Assembly (NCBI GenBank): GCA_963841435.1
Contig: CAWJCS010000005.1
Span: forward strand, 320,001-384,000
Length of the DNA: 64,000 bases
Direction: 5' to 3'
From: an uncultured delta proteobacterium
Lineage (GTDB): Bacteria > Myxococcota_A > Polyangia > Polyangiales > Polyangiaceae
Under the pieces are notes generated by a model. That model was not told where the DNA came from. It ran no database searches and was given only the letters and a program-made list of their open reading frames with translations. Numbering within the stretch: the stretch's first letter is position 1; the number at the start of each line of letters is the position of its first letter. Below, piece by piece: positions 35,156-54,483 of this stretch. A program made the translations under genes and the position numbers.

Positions 35156-37272
35156 ATGCGGAGGTGGATGACGGGATTCGTTGGTGCTAAAAATGCTATT
35201 GTGATCGCTCTCTTGTTCCCAGCCGCGTGCGCGGGCCGGGGCGACGAGGTGGGGGGGGGTGAGACAACCTCCTACACGCAAGAGGCCCTGGTGGTTCCGT
35301 TCACCCTTCCGAGGAGTCGGTGACGGAGAAGGGCGAGATCGACACCAACACTCCGGGCCCCGCTGAAATTGCTGCCGCTGTGCTCACGCCGAGCCTCGCC
35401 TCCTGTGCGACGCCGGACCCCTACGTCTTCGTGAGCTACTCTTCGAGCTCGGTGCTTCGTGCGTCCCTTTCCTCCATGGGATACTCGGGAGGCCCCCTGG
35501 CGCTTCTCCCCGAGGGCTCCCTGCCGATCACCGCGAGCTGTATCGGCAGTCTTCTTCCCGGTTACCCGCCGTCGCCGTACGGCCCCCTCTACGGCTATCC
35601 GATCCAACCGGGTGGCATCCCGTACTTGCAGCACAGCTCGGGCACCGACAACGTCATGGCGCGGTTGCCGACGGGGAACTTGCTGGAAGTGGGGGGAATC
35701 GAGCGCGCCTGCCGGGACCCGATCTCCGAAACCCTGTCCGGATGCCCCACCACCGCCCCCGCTGAGGGCTCCGCCTGCAGCACCGGCACGAACCCGCCGC
35801 GCTGCTCGTACAAGCCCATCACCCCGCCGGGTGATGGCACGGATCGAGTCTGCGGTTGTTACTTCAACCCGGCAGCGGACATCCCCGCGGTCCGTAGCGG
35901 CATGGGGCCGGACGTGACCATCACGGGCACGGCCGTGTCTGCGGCGCTCGGGCTCATCACCGTCACGAACAGCGGCGCCCTCGGCACGGCGCTGATGAGC
36001 TGGTCGTACGGCGCCCAGTCCGGGACGTCCGTGCCGATCGCGACCACCGTCACGCTCGGCACGACGGGCCAGACCGCCAATTTCCCGGCGGGAAACTACG
36101 TTGCCGGGACGACGTACAGCTGGACGCACGACACCTGGCACTGCTTGCCGAGGCGGCTCGAGGCAGGCGGCCTCGGGGTCCGACTCTCCAACGACTGCGG
36201 CGGCAGCTGGGATGCCCGGACCATCTTCCCGTACGAGCTTGGGGTCACGGGCGGGCGCGCGGTCAACCGCTTCGAGATGTCCGTGGACCCGTACGAGGAC
36301 CGCTTTTTCATCACCAGCTACGCGGGGGCGGGCGCGGCCGCCAATCGGAACGTCATCATCAAGGGCTCGCCAAAAACGGCCACGAGTCTCGGAGCCATGA
36401 GCTTCACCTTGTACCGTGACGAGGAGCGCACCGGCCTGCCGGTGGCGCTCACCACCGTACTCGACGAGAAGGCGCGCCTGCCGGGCGGGACGTTCGGCAG
36501 GTGGGTGCACGTCGTAACGGCGAGGTGCCCGGATGACCCCACGAGCGGCGCATTGGTTGACATCGAAACGCCATTTGGTCGCCGCACGGTGAATCTCAGC
36601 ATGGGCCGCTCGGCGGATTTTCGTTGCGATAACGCCGTGTCACTCCCACTCTTCAACGGCTTCACGTATCAGCGGTCCCCCAATATCACCGCCGCCGGCA
36701 TCCCCTCCGTTCCACCACGTGTTCGCGTCGTCTACCACGGCGTTCGGCAATCGGACGGCGCGCAGGTCGTGCACAGCTTCCTCGTCACCCTGTCCAGCCG
36801 CAACGACTACGACGCCGCGGCCATCCAGGCCGAGCTCGTGCACGAATTCACCATCGAGGACACGGCGGGCAGCCGCCACGTGGCGCTGCCGGCGCTGCTG
36901 GGCGTCGATGGCCTCGCAGGCTCCGACGCTCTCACCGACACGCCGATGGTGCTTCGCTACGCGCTCGCCGATGCGACCACGGTCGATGCTCGAGCGACGG
37001 TCATCTACTCGGGCCTGCGCGCATCGACGGACCTCGACCTCGGGTCGTCCAACATGAACCAGATGTTCGGAGGCGGTTGCCCCGGCGTGCTCGATCCGGT
37101 CAACGGCTACTCCGACCCCTGCTTCTTCGGCGACTACCAGTATGGAGCGTTCTTCGACAAGAGCGCCTCGGGTGAGCTCAGGTTCTTTACGCCGTACGGT
37201 GGGCAATCGCTCGCCATGCCGCCAGCAGCTGGGATCTTTGCGATTGGGACGGTCGTCGATGTGGTGCCGTAG
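35156..37272 (+). CDS. Gene A: large Asp-box (BNR/sialidase-like) lipoprotein; frameshift near 35318
   Basis: GAGGAGG RBS, FPAAC lipobox, SNDCGGSW Asp-box, C-terminal FFGDY; 650-aa ORF 35320-37272. Confidence 0.7.
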
Positions 37273-37942
37273 CGCGTTGCTCACGGTTGCGCTCGCCGCC
37301 GCGACGGCGTCGGCCTGCGGGCGATCGATGTCGGGTGTGGAGCCAGCGGCCGGCGAGGGCGGGGAGCCCGCCGGTGCGACAATGGGCGGAGGGAGTCAGA
37401 GCGGCAGCGGCTCCGGCGCCGGCAATACCGCCGGCAGCTCCGAGAACAGTGGCCGGGGGGGTGCTGGCACTGCTGGAACTGGTGGCGGAGGCGGAGGAGG
37501 CTCTGCTGCCGGCGCCATGGGTGGCGGCGACGCGAGCGCAGGCTCGGCGATGAGCGGGGGCGCCGGAGCGGCGGGTGAGTCGAGTGCAGGCGAGAGCGGC
37601 GGCCTCGGTCCGCCGGGCTGCGTGCTCGGTAGCAGGTCATGTGGTTCAGGAAGCGTAGGCTTCGAGTGTCCGCCAGAGACCTACTACGATCTGCCCGAGA
37701 GCTGCTCCGGCTGCATCGACCCCACGACACAGGACCTTCAGTGTCCCACAAGGGGGTACGGCAACTGCACAGGATGTTGTTGCGAACCCACCCGCGGGGG
37801 CTGTGAAGCGCAAACCATCACTTGCGTTGGCTATCCGTCCACGCCAAACCGTTATCGATGCATCGGAGCGTACGACCCCCCTTCACCTGGCTGCGTCCTC
37901 GATACGACACTGAACGGTATCGACGCGCTCTGCTGTCCCTGA
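37259..37942 (+). CDS. Gene B1: Gly-linker lipoprotein with a 16-Cys C-terminal domain
   Basis: ATG overlaps the last codons of A; ASAC lipobox; ends CCP*. Confidence 0.8.
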   Translation: MWCRSALLTVALAAATASACGRSMSGVEPAAGEGGEPAGATMGGGSQSGSGSGAGNTAGSSENSGRGGAGTAGTGGGGGGGSAAGAMGGGDASAGSAMSGGAGAAGESSAGESGGLGPPGCVLGSRSCGSGSVGFECPPETYYDLPESCSGCIDPTTQDLQCPTRGYGNCTGCCCEPTRGGCEAQTITCVGYPSTPNRYRCIGAYDPPSPGCVLDTTLNGIDALCCP

Positions 37943-37948
37943 TGGGCA

Positions 37949-38297
37949 CGACGCTCTCACCGACACGCCGATGGTGCTTCGCTATGCGCTCGCCGATGCG
38001 ACCACGGTCGATGCTCGAGCGACGGTCATCTACTCGGGCCTGCGCGCATCGACGGACCTCGACCTCGGGTCGTCCAACATGAACCAGATGTTCGGAGGCG
38101 GTTGCCCCGGCGTGCTCGATCCGGTCAACGGCTACTCCGACCCCTGCTTCTTCGGCGACTACCAGTATGGAGCGTTCTTCGACAAGAGCGCCTCGGGTGA
38201 GCTCAGGTTCTTTACGCCGTACGGTGGGCAATCGCTCGCCATGCCGCCAGCAGCTGGGATCTTTGCGATTGGGACGGTCGTCGATGTCGCGCCGTAG
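37949..38297 (+). repeat. Orphan 3' copy of gene A (unit 2)
   Basis: Nearly identical to 36924-37272, only a few substitutions seen; open from ATG 37971. Confidence 0.9.
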
Positions 38298-38988
38298 CGT
38301 CGTCATCGCGCTCGTGCTCGCTGCTGCGACGGGCGCGGGTTGCGGGCGGTCGACGTCAGGCGCGCAGCCTGCGGCCGCAGAGGGAGGAGAGACCGCTGCT
38401 GGCGGCAGGGGCGGCAGTGGAGCACCAGGCTCGGGCGGGTCCGAGGCTGGTGCAGACGACGGCCGAGGGAATCAGAGCGGGAGCGACTCGGGCGCTGGCA
38501 GCTCGCAAATGGGCGGAAGCGGTGGTGACGGAGTCGCCGGCGCTGGCGAGAGCTCTGGAGACGCTGGAGGCGGGGCAACGGCGAGCGGCGGCACTGCAGG
38601 CTCGGAGACGGGTGGAAGCGCCGGCTCGACGGGGGGCTCCGGCGCCGGCGGGGACGCCTGTCTGGGCCCGCCGGGCTGTTGGCTGCGGGGCAAGTCTTGT
38701 GGCTCAGGGGCCGTGGGCTTCGAGTGTCCTGGCTGGGAGCCTCCCGACGGCTGCTTCAACTGTCTTGATTCGTCCACGGAAGACTTCCAGTGCCCTCATG
38801 GACCACCCTGCAACATCTGCTGCTGCGAGCCCTCGCGGGGGGGGTGTGAAGACGAGGTGCCGGGGGGATGCGTGGGCTATCCGTCCACTCCCAACGCCTA
38901 TTTCTGCATCACGCCGTACGACGTGCCAGAACCCGGCTGCATATTCATCAGGACGACCGATGGTATCGACAAGGTCTGCTGCCCCTGA
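38284..38988 (+). CDS. Gene B2: 16-Cys lipoprotein allele
   Basis: Same overlap, lipobox GAGC, same Cys framework, ends CCP*. Confidence 0.8.
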   Translation: MSRRSVVIALVLAAATGAGCGRSTSGAQPAAAEGGETAAGGRGGSGAPGSGGSEAGADDGRGNQSGSDSGAGSSQMGGSGGDGVAGAGESSGDAGGGATASGGTAGSETGGSAGSTGGSGAGGDACLGPPGCWLRGKSCGSGAVGFECPGWEPPDGCFNCLDSSTEDFQCPHGPPCNICCCEPSRGGCEDEVPGGCVGYPSTPNAYFCITPYDVPEPGCIFIRTTDGIDKVCCP

Positions 38989-39014
38989 CGCACGCCATTT
39001 GCGCAGCTGCTTCG

Positions 39015-39474
39015 CGCCGCGGCCATGCAGGCGCAGCTCGTGCACGAGTTCACGCTCGAGGATACCGCCGGCAGCCGGCACATGGCGCTTCCAGCGCTGA
39101 TGGGAGTCGACGGCCTCGCCGGCTCCGATGCCCTCACCGACACGCCGATGGTCCTCCGCTACGTGCGCGCCGACCCGACGACGGTCAACGCGCGGGCGAC
39201 GGTCGTCTACTCGGGCCTTCGCCGTTCGACGGATCTCGACCTCGGATCGTCCAACTTCAGCCAGATGTTTGTAGGCGCCTGCCCGGGGATGCTCACCCAG
39301 AGCAACGGCTGGACCAATCCGTGTGCCTTCGGCGACTATGAGTACGGCGCGTTCTTCGACAAGAGCGCCTCGGGCGAGCTCAGGTTCTTCACGCCGTACG
39401 GGGGGCAGTCGCTCGCCATGCCGCCCCCGTCCGGGATCTTCGCAATCGGGACCGTGGTCGATGTGGCGCCGTAG
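39015..39474 (+). repeat. Orphan 3' copy of gene A (unit 3, divergent allele)
   Basis: Homologous to about 36813-37272; open from ATG 39025. Confidence 0.88.
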
Positions 39475-40174
39475 CGCGGTCATCTCGCTCATGCTCGCCA
39501 CCGCGACGGGATCGGCCTGCGGGCGGTCAACGTCCGGAGTGGAGCCGGCGGCCGGCGAGGCAGGGGAGACGGCCAGTGGTGCGAGCGGCGGCAGAGGAGC
39601 AGCCTCCGGGGGATCCGCCGCGGGTGCGACGGGCGGTCGTGGAGGTCAAACCGGAGGCGGCTCCGGTGGCGGCGGCTCCGGGATAGGGGGGGGCTCGGGC
39701 GGTGATGGGCCCGGTGGGACTGGCGAAGTGTCCGGTTCTTCGGGAATCAGCGGGTCACCAAGTGGCGGCGGCGGTGGAGCCTCGGGCGCTGCTGCAAGTG
39801 GGGGCTCCGCGGCCGGCTCGAGTGCGGGTGAGGCTGGCGGCTTTGGTCCGCCGGGGTGCGTGCTGCGAAACAGGTCGTGTGGCTCGCAAGCGGTTGGCTT
39901 CGAATGTCCACCGGAGATCTACTACGACCCTCCCGATACTTGCACCAACTGCATCGACCCCACGATGGAGAACTTACAATGCTATCATGGGCAGCCCTGC
40001 ACACCGTGCTGTTGCGAGCCGTCCGGGGGAGGGTGTGAAGCCCAGACCGGGACCTGCGTTGGATACCCATCAACTCCGAACCTTTTGCTTTGCATCGAAC
40101 CATATGAGCCACCAGCGCAGGGGTGCATCACGCTCGGCTCCGACGATGGCGTCGAAACGGTCTGCTGCCCCTAA
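39461..40174 (+). CDS. Gene B3: 16-Cys lipoprotein allele
   Basis: Same overlap, lipobox GSAC, ends CCP*. Confidence 0.8.
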   Translation: MWRRSAVISLMLATATGSACGRSTSGVEPAAGEAGETASGASGGRGAASGGSAAGATGGRGGQTGGGSGGGGSGIGGGSGGDGPGGTGEVSGSSGISGSPSGGGGGASGAAASGGSAAGSSAGEAGGFGPPGCVLRNRSCGSQAVGFECPPEIYYDPPDTCTNCIDPTMENLQCYHGQPCTPCCCEPSGGGCEAQTGTCVGYPSTPNLLLCIEPYEPPAQGCITLGSDDGVETVCCP

Positions 40175-40185
40175 ACTGAGGAATG

Positions 40186-40805
40186 CCCTGATGTACGGCT
40201 TCACGTACGGGCGGTCCCCCAATATCACTGCCGTCGGCATCCCCTCCGTCCCGCCGCGCGTTCGCGTCGTCTACCACGGCATTCGTCCGGATGGCGCCCA
40301 GGTGGTTCACAGCTTCCTCGTCACCCTGTCGAGCCGCAACGGCTACGACGCCGCGGCCATGCAGGCGCAGCTCGTGCACGAGTTCACGCTCGAGGACACC
40401 GCCGGCAGCCGTGACATGGCGTTGCCAGCGTTGATGGGCGTGGACGGCCTCGCCGGCTCCGACGCTCTGACGGACACGCCGATGGTCCTCCGCTACGTGC
40501 GCGCCGACCCGACGACGGTCGACGCGCGGGCAACGGTCATCTACTCCGGCCTTCGCCGTTCGACGGATCTCGACCTCGGCTCGTCCAACCTGAGCCAGAT
40601 GTTCGGAGGTGCTTGCCCGGGGATGCTCACCCAAAGCAACGGCTGGACGAACCCCTGCGCCTTCGGCGACTACGAGTACGGCGCGTTCTTCGACAAGAGC
40701 GCCTCGGGTGAGCTCAGGTTCTTCACGCCGTACGGGGGGCAGTCGCTGACCATGGGCACGGCCGGTATCTATGCGATTGGGACGGTCGTCGATGTGGTGC
40801 CGTAG
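40186..40805 (+). repeat. Orphan 3' copy of gene A (unit 4, divergent allele)
   Basis: Homologous to about 36646-37272; GAGGA upstream of ATG 40191. Confidence 0.88.
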
Positions 40806-41500
40806 CGCTGTCATCACGCTCGCGCTCGCTGCTGCGACGGGGGCGGCTTGCGGCCGATCCACGTCAGGCGTGGAGCCTGCGGCCGCAGAGGGAGGGGAGA
40901 CCGGCTGCTGGCGGCAGGGGCGGCAGTGGAGCACCAGGCTCGGGCGGGTCCGATGCTGGCGCGAACGGCGGCCGAGGGAATCAGAGCGGGAGCGGCTCGG
41001 GCGCTGGCAGCTCGCAGATGGGCGGAAGCGGCGGTGGCGGAGTCGCTGGCGCCGGCGAGAGCTCTGGAGACGCTGGAGGCGGGGCAACGGCGAGCGGCGG
41101 AAATGCAGGCTCGCAGACGGGTGGAAGTGCCGGCGCGACGGGGGGCTCCGGCGCCGGCGGCGACGCCAGTCTTGGTCCGCCGGGCTGTTGGCTGCGGGGC
41201 AGGTCTTGTGGCTCAGGGGCCGTGGGCTTCGAGTGTCCTGGCTGGGAGCCTCCCGACGGCTGCTTCTACTGTCTTGATTCGTCCACGGAAGACTTCCAGT
41301 GCCCTCATGGACCACCCTGCAACATCTGCTGCTGCGAGCCATCGCGCAGTGGATGCGTGGCCGAGGGGGCTGGGGGGCCTTGCGTCGGATACCCGGCAGC
41401 GCAAAAATACTATTCCTGCATCGGGTCGTATGATCCACCTGCGTCCGGCTGCCTGGTCAGTTCGACCGTCGATGGCATCGACGCGGTCTGTTGCCCGTGA
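40792..41500 (+). CDS. Gene B4: 16-Cys lipoprotein allele; frameshift(s) near 40895-40965
   Basis: N-terminus in ORF 40771-41277, C-terminus in ORF 41018-41500; closely matches B2 up to CCCEPS. Confidence 0.75.
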
Positions 41501-41513
41501 CGAGCCGGGGCGA

Positions 41514-41660
41514 ACGGCCGGCAGCCGGCACATCGCGCTTCCAGCGTTGATGGGCGTGGACGGCCTCGCCGGCTCCGACGCTCTGACGGACACGCCCATG
41601 GTCCTCCGCTACGCGCGCGCCGACCCGACAACGGTCAACGCGCGGGCAACGGTCGTCTAC
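41514..41660 (+). repeat. Fifth gene A fragment, cut by an IS91-like remnant
   Basis: TAGSRHIALPALMGVDGLAGSDALTDTPMVLRY...ATVVY then IS sequence. Confidence 0.85.
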
Positions 41661-41984
41661 CGTCCTTTCGAGCCACTCGCGCTTGCGCAAAGAGGTCGTC
41701 CCGCTTCCGCCTCCCAGCGCATCGGTCCCGATTCGCCCTCCGCCGACTCCGCCACCGCGTCCGCGAGGTCAGCTCGAGCTGCCGCTCGTTCGGTGAGTCG
41801 CTATGCCCACCGAACGCCGCGGGCGTGTGCGCTGCGTTCGGCTACCAGCCGCAGAGGCCGGGTTCATCGACGATGCGTGCACTTTTCCCACGCGAACCTC
41901 ACCGCCCTGGGCCCCGCCTCCTCTAACGACCGCTTCGCCCGCCCAACGGCCCCGCCGTTTTCCCAGTTCGATTTTCCTTCGCGC
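41661..41984 (+). mobile_element. IS91-like 3' (oriIS-side) remnant with internal deletion
   Basis: 41661-41713 matches 46809-46861; 41733-41984 matches 47097-47372. Confidence 0.9.
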
Positions 41985-42000
41985 CGCCACAACTGGCCCG

Positions 42001-45539: not shown

Positions 45540-47372
45540 GGGGTAGCCGGGCCGAATGGCCGCGTGATCACGCTGGGCACGTCTCTGGCCAGCGGACTTC
45601 GCCGTGGGACACCCGGCGCACAGTTTTGGCGACGCTCGACCCCACGTTCGAGCCGATGGCTACGCGCGGCGCCGGCCGGAGGAGAATGCGCTCTACCAGA
45701 CGGTTGCCCAGAGCTGGCCCGCGTTTCACGACCGCGTTCAGGACACTGGCGGCCTGCCGAAGTTCATCGTCAGGGAGTTCGAGGAGTATCTCAAGTGCGG
45801 GATCCTCGAGCACGGCGGCCTCCACCTCGTGTGCCGGAGCTGTGGCTACTCCGAAGTCGTGGCACTCAGCTGCAAGAAGCGCGGTTTTTGCCCGTCCTGC
45901 TTGGGCCGGCGCACGGCCGACACGGCCGTGCACCTGGAAGAGCGAGTGCTGCCGGCCGTGCCCATCCGGCATTGGATCTGCTCTTTGCCTTGGGGCCTCC
46001 GGGCCCTCGCGGGCTACGACCGGCGCTTGTGCGCGCTCATCGCGAGCGCCTTTGTCGGCGAGCTCAGCCGCTCACTCAAGAGGCGAGCGAAGAAGGAGCT
46101 CCGGCTGCCGAGCATCGCCGACGCGCATCCAGGTGCCGTCGCTGCCGTGCAGCGCACTGACGGCGCGCTCCGACTCAACGTGCACTTGCACGTGCTCGCG
46201 CTCGACGGCGTGTACGTGCGTCACCAAGGGAGCGGCGAGCTTCGTTTCCACGCGCTCCTCACGCCGACCCGAGCGGACGTCGAGGACGTGGCGCGCCGGA
46301 CGGCAGCTCGCATCGAGAAGATCCTCCGAGCGAGTGGGCGCACCTTCGGTCCTGAAGAGGACGACGCTCCGCCGCCGGAGCTGACGCTCGATGAGCCCGG
46401 GCTCGCCGCTTGCTACGCCGCTGCCGCGCAGGGCATTTCGGTCAGCGGCGACCGAGCGGGCCTGCCCACGCTCAGACTCGTCTTGCCGCCCGAGCGGCCA
46501 CCTCGCGGCGCTGACACCGGCCCTCTCGCTGATGAGCCCGTCGCCGAGGTGCGCGGCATCAACGTGCACGCTCGGCAACTCGTCGACGGCCGCGATCGGC
46601 GACAACTCGAGCGGCTGTGCCGCTACATCACGCGGCCTCCCGTTGCGCAGGAGCGCCTCGAGCGGCTCGCCGACGGCCGGCTCGAGCGCAGGCTCAAGCA
46701 CGCGTGGAAGGACGGCACGCGCGCCCTCGTCCTCGAGCCCGACGACTTGATGGTCCGGCTAGTCGCCGCGGTGCCCCCGCCGTATTTTCATTTACTGCGG
46801 TATTTTGGCGTCCTTTCGAGCCACTCGCGCTTGCGCAAAGAGGTCGTCCCGCTTCCGCCTCACGACCCGGGCGCCACCGCGCCGCCGCCGGCACCCGGCG
46901 ATCAGCTCGAGCTCGAACTCGACGCCGAGAGCGACGAGCCTCCGGCCGGACGCAAGCGCTGGGCCTGGCTGCTCAGGCATGTGTTTGCGGCCGACCTGGA
47001 TACTTGCCCCCGCTGCTCGGGACCGATGCGCTGGCTGCAGGCTGCCTCCACCCAGGAAGATGCCCGCCACCTGCTCGCCCGGCTCGGGCTCGCGCCTCGC
47101 CCTCCGCCGACTCCGCCACCGCGTCCGCGAGGTCAGCTCGAGCTGCCGCTCGTTCGGTGAGTCGCTATGCCCACCGAACGCCGCGGGCGTGTGCGCTGCG
47201 TTCGGCTACCAGCCGCAGAAGCCGGGTTCATCGACGATGCGTGCACTTTTCCCACGCGAACCTCACCGCCCTGGGCCCCGCCTCCTCTAACGACCGCTTC
47301 GCCCGCCCAACGGCCCCGCCGTTTTCCCGCCCAACGGCCCCGCCGTTTTCCCGGTTCGATTTTCCTTCGCGC
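45540..47372 (+). mobile_element. IS91/ISCR-like element; left end approximate
   Basis: Transposase plus a shared right end TTCGATTTTCCTTCGCGC resembling the IS91 oriIS; 24-bp tandem duplication at 47304-47351. Confidence 0.75.
45604..47160 (+). CDS. IS91-family rolling-circle (HUH, Y2) transposase
   Basis: Zn motif EFEEYLKCGIL...SCKKRGFCPSC, HUH NVHLHVLALDG, LCRYITRPP, LLRYFGV. Confidence 0.92.
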   Translation: MGHPAHSFGDARPHVRADGYARRRPEENALYQTVAQSWPAFHDRVQDTGGLPKFIVREFEEYLKCGILEHGGLHLVCRSCGYSEVVALSCKKRGFCPSCLGRRTADTAVHLEERVLPAVPIRHWICSLPWGLRALAGYDRRLCALIASAFVGELSRSLKRRAKKELRLPSIADAHPGAVAAVQRTDGALRLNVHLHVLALDGVYVRHQGSGELRFHALLTPTRADVEDVARRTAARIEKILRASGRTFGPEEDDAPPPELTLDEPGLAACYAAAAQGISVSGDRAGLPTLRLVLPPERPPRGADTGPLADEPVAEVRGINVHARQLVDGRDRRQLERLCRYITRPPVAQERLERLADGRLERRLKHAWKDGTRALVLEPDDLMVRLVAAVPPPYFHLLRYFGVLSSHSRLRKEVVPLPPHDPGATAPPPAPGDQLELELDAESDEPPAGRKRWAWLLRHVFAADLDTCPRCSGPMRWLQAASTQEDARHLLARLGLAPRPPPTPPPRPRGQLELPLVR

Positions 47373-50518: not shown

Positions 50519-50832
50519 CCCAGGAAGATGCCCGCCACCTGCTCGCCCGGCTCGGGCTCGCGCCTCGCCCTCCGCCGACTCCGCCACCGCGTCCGCGAGG
50601 TCAGCTCGAGCTGCCGCTCGTTCGGTGAGTCGCTATGCCCACCGAACGCCGCGGGCGTGTGCGCTGCGTTCGGCTACCAGCCGCAGAGGCCGGGTTCATC
50701 GACGATGCGTGCACTTTTCCCACGCGAACCTCACCGCCCTGGGCCCCGCCTCACCGCTTCGCCCGCCCAACGGCCCCGCCGTTTTCCCGCCCAACGGCCC
50801 CGCCGTTTTCCCAGTTCGATTTTCCTTCGCGC
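50519..50832 (+). mobile_element. Third copy of the IS91-like 3' (oriIS-side) end
   Basis: Matches 47051-47372 apart from a small deletion. Confidence 0.9.
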
Positions 50833-51118
50833 CGCCCGGCGCCCGAACGCATTCTTACCTTCCGCACGGTCATGTCTTGAGCGCGATGTCTCGAAGTCGG
50901 CTGGCGAGGTCGTCGCGATACTGCTCGAACTCGGTTCGAGTCAGCGGCTTCAGCATCTCCTTCCGCGCAACCCGGGGCGAAGCATGGGGGCGCGGCCGCT
51001 GTTCCGGTACCGGCGTCGAACTTTCCAAGCAGGGGTGCTGGCTCGGTCGATGGGTTCATGCGAAACTGCCGACTACACCTCTGCTCATGGCGTTTGTCCT
51101 CCCGCACCGGCCAAGTCG

Positions 51119-53555: not shown

Positions 53556-53858
53556 ATGCTTCCGCCCACGAGCTCCAAGCTTCTGGATCCGAACGCGGTG
53601 CCATACTTCTTGTGGGACGACCACATGACCGTAGCGCGGGCGCGGGCCATCCTTTCGGCCTCCGAAACACGACCCCGCGACGAGCTTATCGCTCGCATTC
53701 TACGCGAAGCGAACACGCGAGACGTGTGGGTCTTTTTGGATTGGAGCATGATCGACGAAGCATGGCCCCGCATTGAAATGCGCCTCGGTCGCGCCCGCGG
53801 GATGTGGACTCTGCTGCGGTCGCGTCACCTCGAGAATGTCCGTGTCCCGGCTGCCTAG
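53556..53858 (+). CDS. Putative antitoxin partner of the AbiEii-like gene
   Basis: 100 aa with PYFLWD...IARIL, overlapping the downstream nucleotidyltransferase gene. Confidence 0.65.
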   Translation: MLPPTSSKLLDPNAVPYFLWDDHMTVARARAILSASETRPRDELIARILREANTRDVWVFLDWSMIDEAWPRIEMRLGRARGMWTLLRSRHLENVRVPAA

Positions 53859-54483
53859 CCTCGTCGAACAGTTGGTGCTCGCTGCTCAGGCCGCGTGCCC
53901 GGATCTGCGGCTTGCCGGTGGCGCGGGACTGGCGCTGCTCCTTGAGCATAGGCGTTCGGACGATATCGACTTGTTCTGTTCGAACTCGGAGGACGTGGAG
54001 ATCGTTGCCCAGACGCTGGAAGCCGAAGCTCGCGCGCGAGGGGCGACGCTCGCTCGCGTGCGAAAGGGGCCCACCTTCGTCCGCTTTGAGGGCTACGGAG
54101 AGGGCGCGCCGCTTCGCGTCAACGTTGCCCAAGACGCTGCGCCCCGCATCACTGCCGGTGCCGTCGTGGTTGGGGGCATCAAAGTCGAGTCGCTCCAAGA
54201 TCAGCGCGCGAACAAGCTCTCGGCCGTTCTTGGCCGGTCGGCTCTCCGTGATCTCGTCGACCTTTACTTTCTTTCGAAGGCCGGCTGGCCGCCGCTCGAC
54301 GGGCTGTCCGAGGCAGCTACGAAGGAGGGTGGCATGGATCCGGGCTGGCTTGCTTGGGCGCTATCGCAGATCGAAATCACGCCACTTCCAGGCATGATCG
54401 TCGAACTCGACAGCGACGACCTGCGACAATTCCGCGACGATTTGGTGGGCAAGCTCCTCGACGCTGCGGGAGCACGAGTCTGA
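53836..54483 (+). CDS. AbiEii/AbiGii-family nucleotidyltransferase (type IV TA toxin-like)
   Basis: LAGGAGLAL...HRRSDDIDLF and NKLSAVLGR...RDLVDLY. Confidence 0.85.
   Translation: MSVSRLPSLVEQLVLAAQAACPDLRLAGGAGLALLLEHRRSDDIDLFCSNSEDVEIVAQTLEAEARARGATLARVRKGPTFVRFEGYGEGAPLRVNVAQDAAPRITAGAVVVGGIKVESLQDQRANKLSAVLGRSALRDLVDLYFLSKAGWPPLDGLSEAATKEGGMDPGWLAWALSQIEITPLPGMIVELDSDDLRQFRDDLVGKLLDAAGARV

Follow-up and report, generated by a model that had tools for sequence, protein, structure and literature searches.

The window analysed here is a 64,000-nucleotide (nt) stretch of the genome of an uncultured soil member of the Polyangiaceae (assembly GCA_963841435.1, contig CAWJCS010000005.1, positions 320,001 to 384,000). 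Between its positions 35156 and 41660 lies an array, called C5 where it is compared with loci on other contigs, that is headed by a gene, A, whose product ends in a predicted beta-propeller, and by a gene, B1, for a small predicted lipoprotein. Behind these come 5'-truncated copies of the end of A (the orphan tails A'2 to A'5), of which the complete ones each lead into a further B gene (B2, B3 and B4). The order A-B1, A'2-B2, A'3-B3, A'4-B4, A'5(cut) was confirmed with a repeat finder and with BLAST, using window positions 25-52 kb as the query and the whole 7.78-Mb genome (6 contigs) as the target. A sequence-only reading of the window had proposed this order and a full-length head gene; the order stands but the head gene is not full, having lost its signal peptide and ~335 N-terminal residues. 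The features of the array, with their strand and with open reading frames given as ORFs, are as follows.

35156..35323 (+): leader remnant ORF of 55 codons, encoding a lipoprotein-type signal peptide and ~30 residues homologous to the N-termini of full-length paralogs
35251..35259 (+): poly-G9 tract encoding V-G-G-G
35320..37272 (+): head gene A, an ORF of 650 codons with a GTG start that overlaps the TGA of the leader
36133..37269 (+): C-terminal beta-propeller domain of A, 379 amino acids (aa), from an AlphaFold2 model
36187-36210 (+): Asp-box SNDCGGSW in A
37226..37262 (+): conserved block at the end of A and start of B (…GCGATTGGGACGGTCGTCGATGT), recurring at 38265, ~39448 and 40773
37259..37942 (+): B1, a predicted lipoprotein of 227 aa
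37943..37948 (+): junction filler J1, 6 nt
37949..38297 (+): orphan tail A'2, corresponding to A residues ~535-650
38284..38988 (+): B2, 234 aa
38989..39014 (+): junction filler J2, 26 nt, identical at the C6 locus
39015..39474 (+): orphan tail A'3, corresponding to A residues ~498-650
39461..40174 (+): B3, 237 aa
40175..40194 (+): junction filler J3, 20 nt
40195..40805 (+): orphan tail A'4, corresponding to A residues ~446-650
40792..41500 (+): B4, its frame broken by an extra G at 40903
41501..41513 (+): junction filler J4, 13 nt
41514..41660 (+): orphan tail A'5, cut after 49 codons and corresponding to A residues ~515-563
41733..41988 (+): remnant of an IS91-family insertion sequence (IS), comprising the 3' end and downstream sequence, that bounds the array

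The repeat finder placed direct repeats of the A tail at 36924/37949/39126/40460 and at 36813/39015/40349, and a fifth copy of 147 nt occupies 41514-41660. In the BLAST alignments A'2 (from 37949) pairs with A from 36924 at 92% identity over 477 nt, with 100% across the first 302 nt, A'3 (from 39015) pairs with A from 36813 at 82%, A'4 (from 40195) with A from 36656 at 84%, and A'5 (41514-41660) with A 36862-37008 at 82%. Since the repeats are 147-890 nt long and 82-100% identical, a chance origin is excluded. Three of the start points within A that had been read by eye (36924, 36813 and 36862) were recovered, and the fourth, 36646, has to be moved to 36656.

A'2, A'3 and A'4 each reach a stop codon homologous to that of A, and the ATG of the B gene overlaps the end of A and of every complete tail, by 14 nt each time. 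The earlier description of units 2-4 as running to the A stop and into a B gene is therefore borne out, as is the general architecture of a conserved arm with a variable downstream module. The distance from each B stop to the next A' homology measures 6, 26, 20 and 13 nt, in agreement with the 6-26 bp first reported, and comparison of the four fillers revealed no common motif and no convincing microhomology. In the J3 filler a GAGGA stands 8 nt ahead of an ATG that is in frame with A'4, from which a 204-aa fragment could be translated. On the propeller model A'2, A'3 and A'4 begin at residues ~264, 227 and 175 and include 6, 8 and 11 of the 21 predicted strands. With only 6-11 of 21 strands of a single propeller, the orphan tails cannot be domains of their own.

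No promoter-like sites were predicted within the array, and the only 2 terminator-like sites predicted lie at its left edge on the opposite strand; the absence of internal promoter-like sites is weak evidence for a single transcription unit. Three public DNA sequencing runs, all from one study, yielded contigs of 123-905 nt that cover parts of the stretch. One short contig crosses the joint between B4 and A'5 (41422-41596) with zero mismatches, although it may share its source sample with the assembly, and two further joints are found in single low-depth contigs that probably derive from the C6 paralog or from repeats.

Mosaicism and divergence within the array

Comparison of the window with the rest of the genome reveals a patchwork. 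Positions 34865-36150 of C5 are ~100% identical to a locus on contig C6, whereas the propeller-coding half that follows is 63-90% identical. Further downstream, positions ~38250-39400, which cover B2, J2 and most of A'3, are again ~100% identical to C6 and divergent afterwards, and the B2-J2-A'3 block is thereby common to two loci in different contexts. A'3 and the head gene of the C6 locus also share an identical run of 213 nt. In five comparisons the longest identical runs were 613, 213, 302, 443 and 171 nt, each of them reached in 0 of 10000 permutations, whereas in a sixth comparison, between the near-identical units 2 and 3 of a locus on contig C3, the differences were not clustered (1547 of 10000).

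The mosaic breakpoints fall in the last ~35-150 nt of A, in or adjoining the conserved block (…GGGACGGTCGTCGATGT). The block listed above, which contains the B start codon, is identical in nearly all units, and the breakpoints lie within it or slightly upstream. Tails and B genes are correspondingly found in different combinations: B2 lies behind a type I tail at C5 and behind a type II tail at C6, and the gene behind an A'3-type tail is B3 at C5 and a B4-like one at C6. Taken together, the comparisons show that crossovers in the 3' end of A have reshuffled the B genes, both inside a locus and from one locus to another. Because the crossovers fall in the conserved 3' end of A, a B gene moves between positions and loci independently of its tail. 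The suggestion that the A tail serves as a homology arm is thus upheld as a statement about evolutionary history, the evidence being the blocks of 100% identity and the breakpoints near the end of A, and A is joined directly to B2 at the second locus on C6 (C6b).

The head genes of C5 and C6 have a 1.3-kb block of ~100% identity in common; inside it, right behind the deletion joint, positions 35313-35450 form a patch of 85-89% identity, which on its sequence looks like another short conversion tract.

The tails were also compared through their synonymous divergence (dS) and the ratio of non-synonymous to synonymous divergence (dN/dS). Across 21 tail pairs dN/dS ranges from 0.06 to 0.43 and is <=0.20 in 17; dS is 0.04 for A against A'2 and 0.2-1.0 for the other pairs, with a maximum of 0.97, and no stops or frameshifts occur in the tails. 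The low dN/dS, a mark of purifying selection, indicates that the differences accumulated in, or were copied from, functional A genes and not in decaying fragments, and the orphan tails are relics of once-functional A 3' ends. The ages of neighbouring parts are discordant, with a dS of 0.04 for A against A'2 and of 1.55 for B1 against B2, so that the age of the B alleles far exceeds that of the adjoining tails. A pattern in which the A' and B of one unit differ so greatly in age is not what simple duplication would produce.

The A and B families and their loci

Five A loci are present in the genome, and all five continue into B-like lipoprotein genes. The start of B overlaps the end of A by 14 nt in four of them and by 23 nt in the fifth, and orphan tails occur at three (C5, C6b and C3). 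Their layouts are as follows.

C5 (window): A-B1-A'2-B2-A'3-B3-A'4-B4-A'5(cut)
C6b: A-B2-A'-B(B4-like)
C3 (~40% identical to A): A-B-A'-B-A'-B-A'(cut)
C4: A-B-B(cut)
C6a: A-B-B'

The flanks of C6b are unrelated to those of the window, which makes it a paralogous locus and not a haplotype. At C3 one junction type has been amplified, with a nested A fragment of ~20 codons that starts ~10 nt past the B stop.

Outside this genome the family is rare. No close A homologues were found in 24 congeners or in 16 genomes of the same order, apart from two weak partial matches in one genome, and a profile of the A tail matched 4 of 382 other genomes of the family Polyangiaceae, all weakly (best E 1e-12). 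A pattern scan of genome contigs gave no relatives among 10 pattern matches, whilst the same kind of scan in metagenomes gave two loci among 105. One of these, contig L025, has an A tail and a B-like lipoprotein gene with the 14-nt overlap; the other carries a full A homologue and no B downstream. Among the best 150 matches to a profile of the A family, at least 15 proteins of <=230 aa match the tail only, two of which are the orphans of this same genome. One tail-only protein, P0063, has 44 non-homologous N-terminal residues before the tail, and this additional N-terminus favours a true orphan over a fragment produced by a contig end. The A sequence had no match in the PDB and none among plasmids or phages.

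In the head gene itself, the ORF for the signal peptide (…LLFPAAC…VGGGETTSYTQEALVVPFTLP) runs from 35156 to a TGA at 35321-35323, in a frame that differs from that of the A ORF. A and its C6 twin, aligned with three full-length paralogs of this genome and three homologues from metagenomes (825-977 aa), prove to be without the first ~335 residues. Full-length members of the family have 892-977 aa; relative to these the head A is missing the signal peptide and a ~300-aa N-terminal domain (N-domain), and the alignment points to an out-of-frame internal deletion as the cause. Slippage at the poly-G tract was considered as a means of rescuing the head gene and was rejected, for no tract length joins the signal peptide to the A ORF. 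The head A protein has 14 Cys and no export signal, although its relatives are lipoproteins, a lipobox being present in members of the family. As judged from sequence, full-length A would be a ~900-aa lipoprotein with a lipobox, a poly-G9 tract, a DUF7305/ice-binding-like N-domain, a Cys-rich middle and a C-terminal Asp-box beta-propeller.

Searches of Pfam, NCBIfam and PADLOC gave no match for A, B or the full-length A paralogs. The last 379 residues of A are modelled by AlphaFold2 (27-row alignment) as one all-beta domain, with a mean predicted local distance difference test score (pLDDT) of 87.1 and a predicted template-modelling (TM) score of 0.87. With Foldseek the model matches fucose lectins, sialidases and PL24 lyases best, with E ~4e-5 at a TM-score of ~0.4, and VIA-align gives Z-scores of 14-18 to CylK, integrin alpha, lectins and sialidases. 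The predicted fold is clearly that of a beta-propeller, but the fold does not indicate a function. Known Asp-box (BNR) propellers resemble A in that it has one S-x-D-x-G-x-x-W motif and a propeller model, whose best matches include AofleA and AAL, fucose lectins with six blades, yet A has no Pfam match to BNR or sialidase families and no PDB sequence match, and unrelated propellers score alike.

The N-domain, which spans positions ~10-300 of the family profile, is far more widespread. The A-family profile detected 1420 proteins at E<=0.001, 37 of them at E<=1e-30, among 1.84 billion representative sequences, and the N-domain heads more than 600 otherwise different proteins of 250-3600 aa. When 16 matches to the N-domain only were scanned, three had Rhs repeats (P0102, P0125 and P0152) and one was of TcA type (P0057); sub-threshold matches to DUF7305 were obtained in three of the 16. 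SpvB/TcB-like proteins are also among those headed by this domain. A protein atlas placed the N-domain near DUF7305 and ice-binding-like clusters that are commonest in Myxococcota, with scores of 0.79-0.84 that are to be taken as leads only, and DUF7305 was not mentioned in the literature searched. Surface proteins of Myxococcota may commonly use the N-domain for anchoring or presentation.

All five A-family genes carry GTG-G8-T, a nine-G run in V-G-G-G-E codons, at the same codons just past the lipobox, even though the paralogs that carry it are only 35-40% identical in protein. Beyond the window the tracts lie at C6:172843, C4:553236, C3:388470 and C6:193980. The length is G9 in four of the genes and G11 in one, the C6 twin, in which it is out of frame; a G10 tract would give an immediate TGA. 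These tracts make up 5 of the 32 runs of at least nine G or C in the 7.78-Mb genome. Their conservation suggests phase variation, with a homopolymer sequencing error possible in the one deviating copy.

The B proteins have a signal peptide that ends in a Cys, taken as a lipobox by reading the sequence. It is followed by a linker that is 73-78% Gly/Ser/Ala and by a Cys-rich C-terminal domain, with 17-18 Cys per protein; in B1 the Cys-rich domain has ~110 aa and the whole protein 18 Cys. The family would thus appear to be lipoproteins of ~200-240 aa with a small Cys-rich knot on a long Gly/Ser/Ala tether. The four copies do differ from one another, as had been proposed, with B1, B3 and B4 being 53%, 60% and 82% identical in amino acids to B2, but they are not all intact alleles: B4 is frameshifted by one extra G at 40903 relative to B2. 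At the second locus on contig C6 the first B encodes exactly the same protein as B2 (100% identity); the last B there also carries a 1-nt insertion, placed differently from the one in B4. Between the Cys domains of the B1, B2/B4 and B3 classes dS is 1.4-3.1 and dN/dS 0.11-0.24, whilst among B2, B4 and the B4-like gene of C6 dS is ~0.4 and dN/dS 0.26-0.33.

Relatives of B could not be found. A word-based search with residues 122-234 of B2 produced six candidates, none of which scored, and no homologue; a profile of five B Cys domains matched only the B1 and B3 of the window; the protein atlas gave no usable match and a profile search of the PDB none. Alignment of the C5-type B Cys domains with those of the C3/C4/C6a type by hhalign gave a probability of 5.7%, and homology between the two is not supported. 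The AlphaFold2 model of the B1 Cys domain, from a 5-row alignment, is unusable (pLDDT 33.6), and prediction of a complex between the A propeller and this domain scored 0.00 in two runs with the fold of the partner uncertain, such that no conclusion was drawn from it.

Origin of the array and its likeness to known systems

We lean, with modest confidence, towards the region being a recombining store of alleles for envelope lipoproteins of the B family, that is, a genuine orphan-cassette array of a rare multi-copy A-B operon family. In each unit the relic of an A allele that once functioned survives as its 3' end, and with it the region from which translation of a complete B gene starts. We regard it as shown that new units were joined on by illegitimate events, which left a unique 6-26-nt filler right after each B stop, and that homologous recombination or gene conversion, crossing over within the conserved last part of A, then shuffled and homogenised the units. 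By inference, the array would form one transcription unit in which the B gene adjoining the head gene is the best expressed, intact members of the family would be switched on and off at the poly-G tract, and the B alleles would be retained because diversity of a tethered envelope protein is useful. The alleles themselves may have come from other strains or may be old paralogs, both sources being compatible with the data. A more ambitious proposal, which we hold to be unlikely, is that A-B is a phase-variable, recombination-driven system for envelope-lipoprotein diversity. The poly-G tract would be its on/off switch, and B alleles would be moved from the orphan store or from paralogous loci into the expressed position, changing the Cys-knot partner of a lectin-like propeller, which would either recognise kin, prey or phage or form a new toxin and immunity pair with it.

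A number of observations weigh against a recombining store of B alleles. The clustering of differences could partly reflect uneven constraint, and the low dN/dS of the tails could come from repeated gene conversion by a selected head gene instead of from the capture of foreign alleles. The B alleles show overall purifying selection; measuring their dN/dS was a check proposed with the original reading, and the values of 0.11-0.33 do not reveal gross diversifying selection. The start of every A' within 26 nt of a B stop lacks a mechanistic explanation; one suggestion is that only joints upstream of the operon terminator would give an expressed new B. The public sequencing runs are represented by sparse short contigs, none of which spans the array, and close A homologues for a comparison across strains were not found in 24 congeners or, beyond four weak matches, in 382 other genomes of the family. 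Finally, the broken head gene makes a present-day function of the C5 locus doubtful.

The same array could be a polymorphic toxin-immunity locus, in which A is an exported effector with the propeller as its variable C-terminal part ('CT') and B a membrane-tethered immunity protein, and in which the orphans are displaced toxin fragments kept for the attached immunity genes against the toxins of non-kin, as in contact-dependent inhibition (CDI), Rhs and MafB systems. Such a locus would account for two A copies that are ~100% identical before the propeller and diverged over the whole of it, for the tight overlap of A and B, for B1-B3 being intact under purifying selection while the A' pieces are fragments, and for the presence of the A-family N-domain at the head of Rhs-repeat proteins and a TcA-like protein (4 of the 16 scanned). 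Against this, Pfam, NCBIfam and PADLOC contain no toxin or immunity family that matches, the likeness of the propeller to lectins, integrins and sialidases is only generic, tail and B types are not inherited together in the way that cognate CT-immunity modules are, and one full metagenome homologue of A has no downstream B; we judge this explanation improbable. The array may alternatively be a neutral by-product of tandem duplication by unequal crossing-over in an IS-rich island, with concerted evolution of the tails and slow decay but no cassette function. The broken head gene, the frameshifts in B4 and in the last B of C6, the cut A'5, the setting of the loci amid many IS91-family copies, the amplification at C3 of one junction type in units that are 97.7% identical, and the plain B-B duplications without tails at C4 and C6a are all in keeping with such an origin. 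It is harder to reconcile with four different C5 junctions within 26 nt of a B stop and a fifth at C3 ~10 nt past one, with tail lineages whose dS of 0.2-0.7 is accompanied by dN/dS mostly of 0.1-0.2, which points to diverged functional donors that are no longer full genes here, or with B1-B3 being intact despite a dS above 1.4, and on balance it is rather unlikely.

It is very improbable that the assembler built the array by stringing together strain haplotypes of one A-B locus, although the assembly is of metagenome type with 2.7% contamination and the public runs yielded no contig across the whole array. Every junction is unique and reading frames are kept, the array sits inside a 1.85-Mb contig, a second locus with different flanks has the same B2-J2-A'3 block, a ~40%-identical paralog locus on another contig is of the same design, and the public-run contig noted above bridges B4 and A'5 without a mismatch, albeit perhaps from the same sample.

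The resemblance to orphan modules is plain in the layout. Comparable orphan modules are known from Rhs and MafB loci. As at CDI, Rhs and MafB loci, a full gene comes first, and behind it stand, in tandem, 3' fragments that have lost their 5' parts and are each coupled to a complete small gene; the fragments begin at various points, near the small gene before them. In those systems, however, a variable toxin tip follows the conserved arm and moves jointly with its immunity gene, whereas in the C5 array the whole retained fragment is the conserved part (82-100% nt identity) and is a piece of a beta-propeller and not a toxin domain. Moreover, the crossovers are at the A/B boundary, B is independent of its tail and B is a lipoprotein. 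In one account, the orphan toxin/immunity modules at CDI loci are read as displaced modules, with homologous recombination in the shared part (PMC9086364). Rhs, FHA and DUF1020 domains were not detected in A, nor were toxin domains in A or its full-length paralogs, with Pfam, NCBIfam and PADLOC, and the original remark that the cargo is not a recognisable toxin is sustained. Co-inheritance of a C-terminal fragment with its cognate downstream gene was likewise not observed, B2 being found behind two tail types. As to a large exported protein with a conserved N-terminal part and a variable C-terminal one, two close A copies are ~100% identical before the propeller and 63-90% within it, the N-domain is common to more than 600 other proteins, and the window copy lacks its signal peptide and N-domain.

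Silent-cassette systems such as pilE/pilS of Neisseria, vlsE of Borrelia and tprK of Treponema copy partial segments into one expression gene. They share with the array a single head position, promoterless downstream copies and mosaic tracts bounded by conserved sequence; unlike them, the C5 cassettes hold complete B ORFs with their own start and signal peptide. Homopolymer-tract contingency genes undergo phase variation by slipped-strand mispairing, and the A family resembles them in having a homopolymer tract early in the coding region whose length sets the frame (G9 against the out-of-frame G11), kept at the nucleotide level across five paralogs that otherwise show 35-90% identity. Integron cassettes differ in that no shared recombination site was found in the four fillers and no integrase gene among the 16 neighbouring ORFs scanned. 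Within the Myxococcota a parallel is offered by the SitA/SitI family of Myxococcus, described as polymorphic lipoprotein toxin operons that are multi-copy, located on accessory DNA and made of overlapping ORFs (PMC5562445). A-B shares with it the phylum, the lipoproteins, the multiple copies on accessory DNA, the small downstream partner and the overlapping ORFs. SitA/SitI loci further have an upstream sitB, toxin domains of nuclease type at the C-terminus of SitA and cytoplasmic immunity proteins, SUKH-like or other, none of which was detected at the A-B locus. The array is hence of the orphan-cassette type, yet it falls outside the CDI/Rhs/MafB, silent-cassette and SitA/SitI families, and the best-matching literature does not describe a lipoprotein cassette system of this kind.

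Arrays of orphan cassettes have been known to carry toxin tips; the present one stores whole alleles of a small envelope lipoprotein, each following a conserved remnant of a beta-propeller gene, and its family has no annotation and almost no relatives. If functional, the system would be a new class of polymorphic surface or competition locus in the social and predatory Myxococcota, and a tractable case of short conserved gene ends serving as crossover sites that reshuffle neighbouring genes. If not functional, it would be a clean example of how such arrays arise and decay. It is the intact C3 locus, rather than the window copy, that would be the one to study in this genome.

Surroundings and decay of the array

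Upstream of A lies a Dus gene on the opposite strand. Downstream, at 45568-47160, is an IS91-family transposase gene with the Pfam domains Y2_Tnp and Zn_Tnp_IS91, and dozens of copies of the element, 75-96% identical, are present on contigs C2-C6. The 3' end of the element with its downstream sequence occurs three times in the window (41733-41964, 47097-47328 and 50565-50836), and 73 nt separate the cut end of A'5 from a stretch of 232 nt that matches 47097-47328 at 99.6% identity. As four of the five A-B loci are within about 20 kb of IS91-family copies, these elements may have spread the A-B loci.

With its head A truncated and frame-broken, its last B frameshifted and an IS remnant at its end, the C5 copy looks like a decaying locus and not a working switch. 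In both the C5 and the C6 array the intact B genes are proximal and the broken B is distal, which fits the proximal units being younger or better expressed, although two arrays do not make a statistic.

The neighbourhood is marked as accessory DNA by an ORF at 53752-54483 with a Pfam match to AbiEii, the nucleotidyltransferase of a type IV toxin-antitoxin system, and by a dip in G+C content to 59-62% at 43-45 kb. Elsewhere in the genome, C2:532656-532832 holds an isolated A fragment of 59 codons (59% identical to A residues 374-432, with one internal TGA) a few kb from IS91-like repeats. At C6:197866-198960 (L024) an opposite-strand ORF of 364 codons, transposase-like by eye, starts at the stop of the last B (TAG|TA), and at C3:381258-382078 (L021) the cut tail is followed by two small overlapping ORFs that by eye have the look of a PIN-type toxin and its antitoxin.

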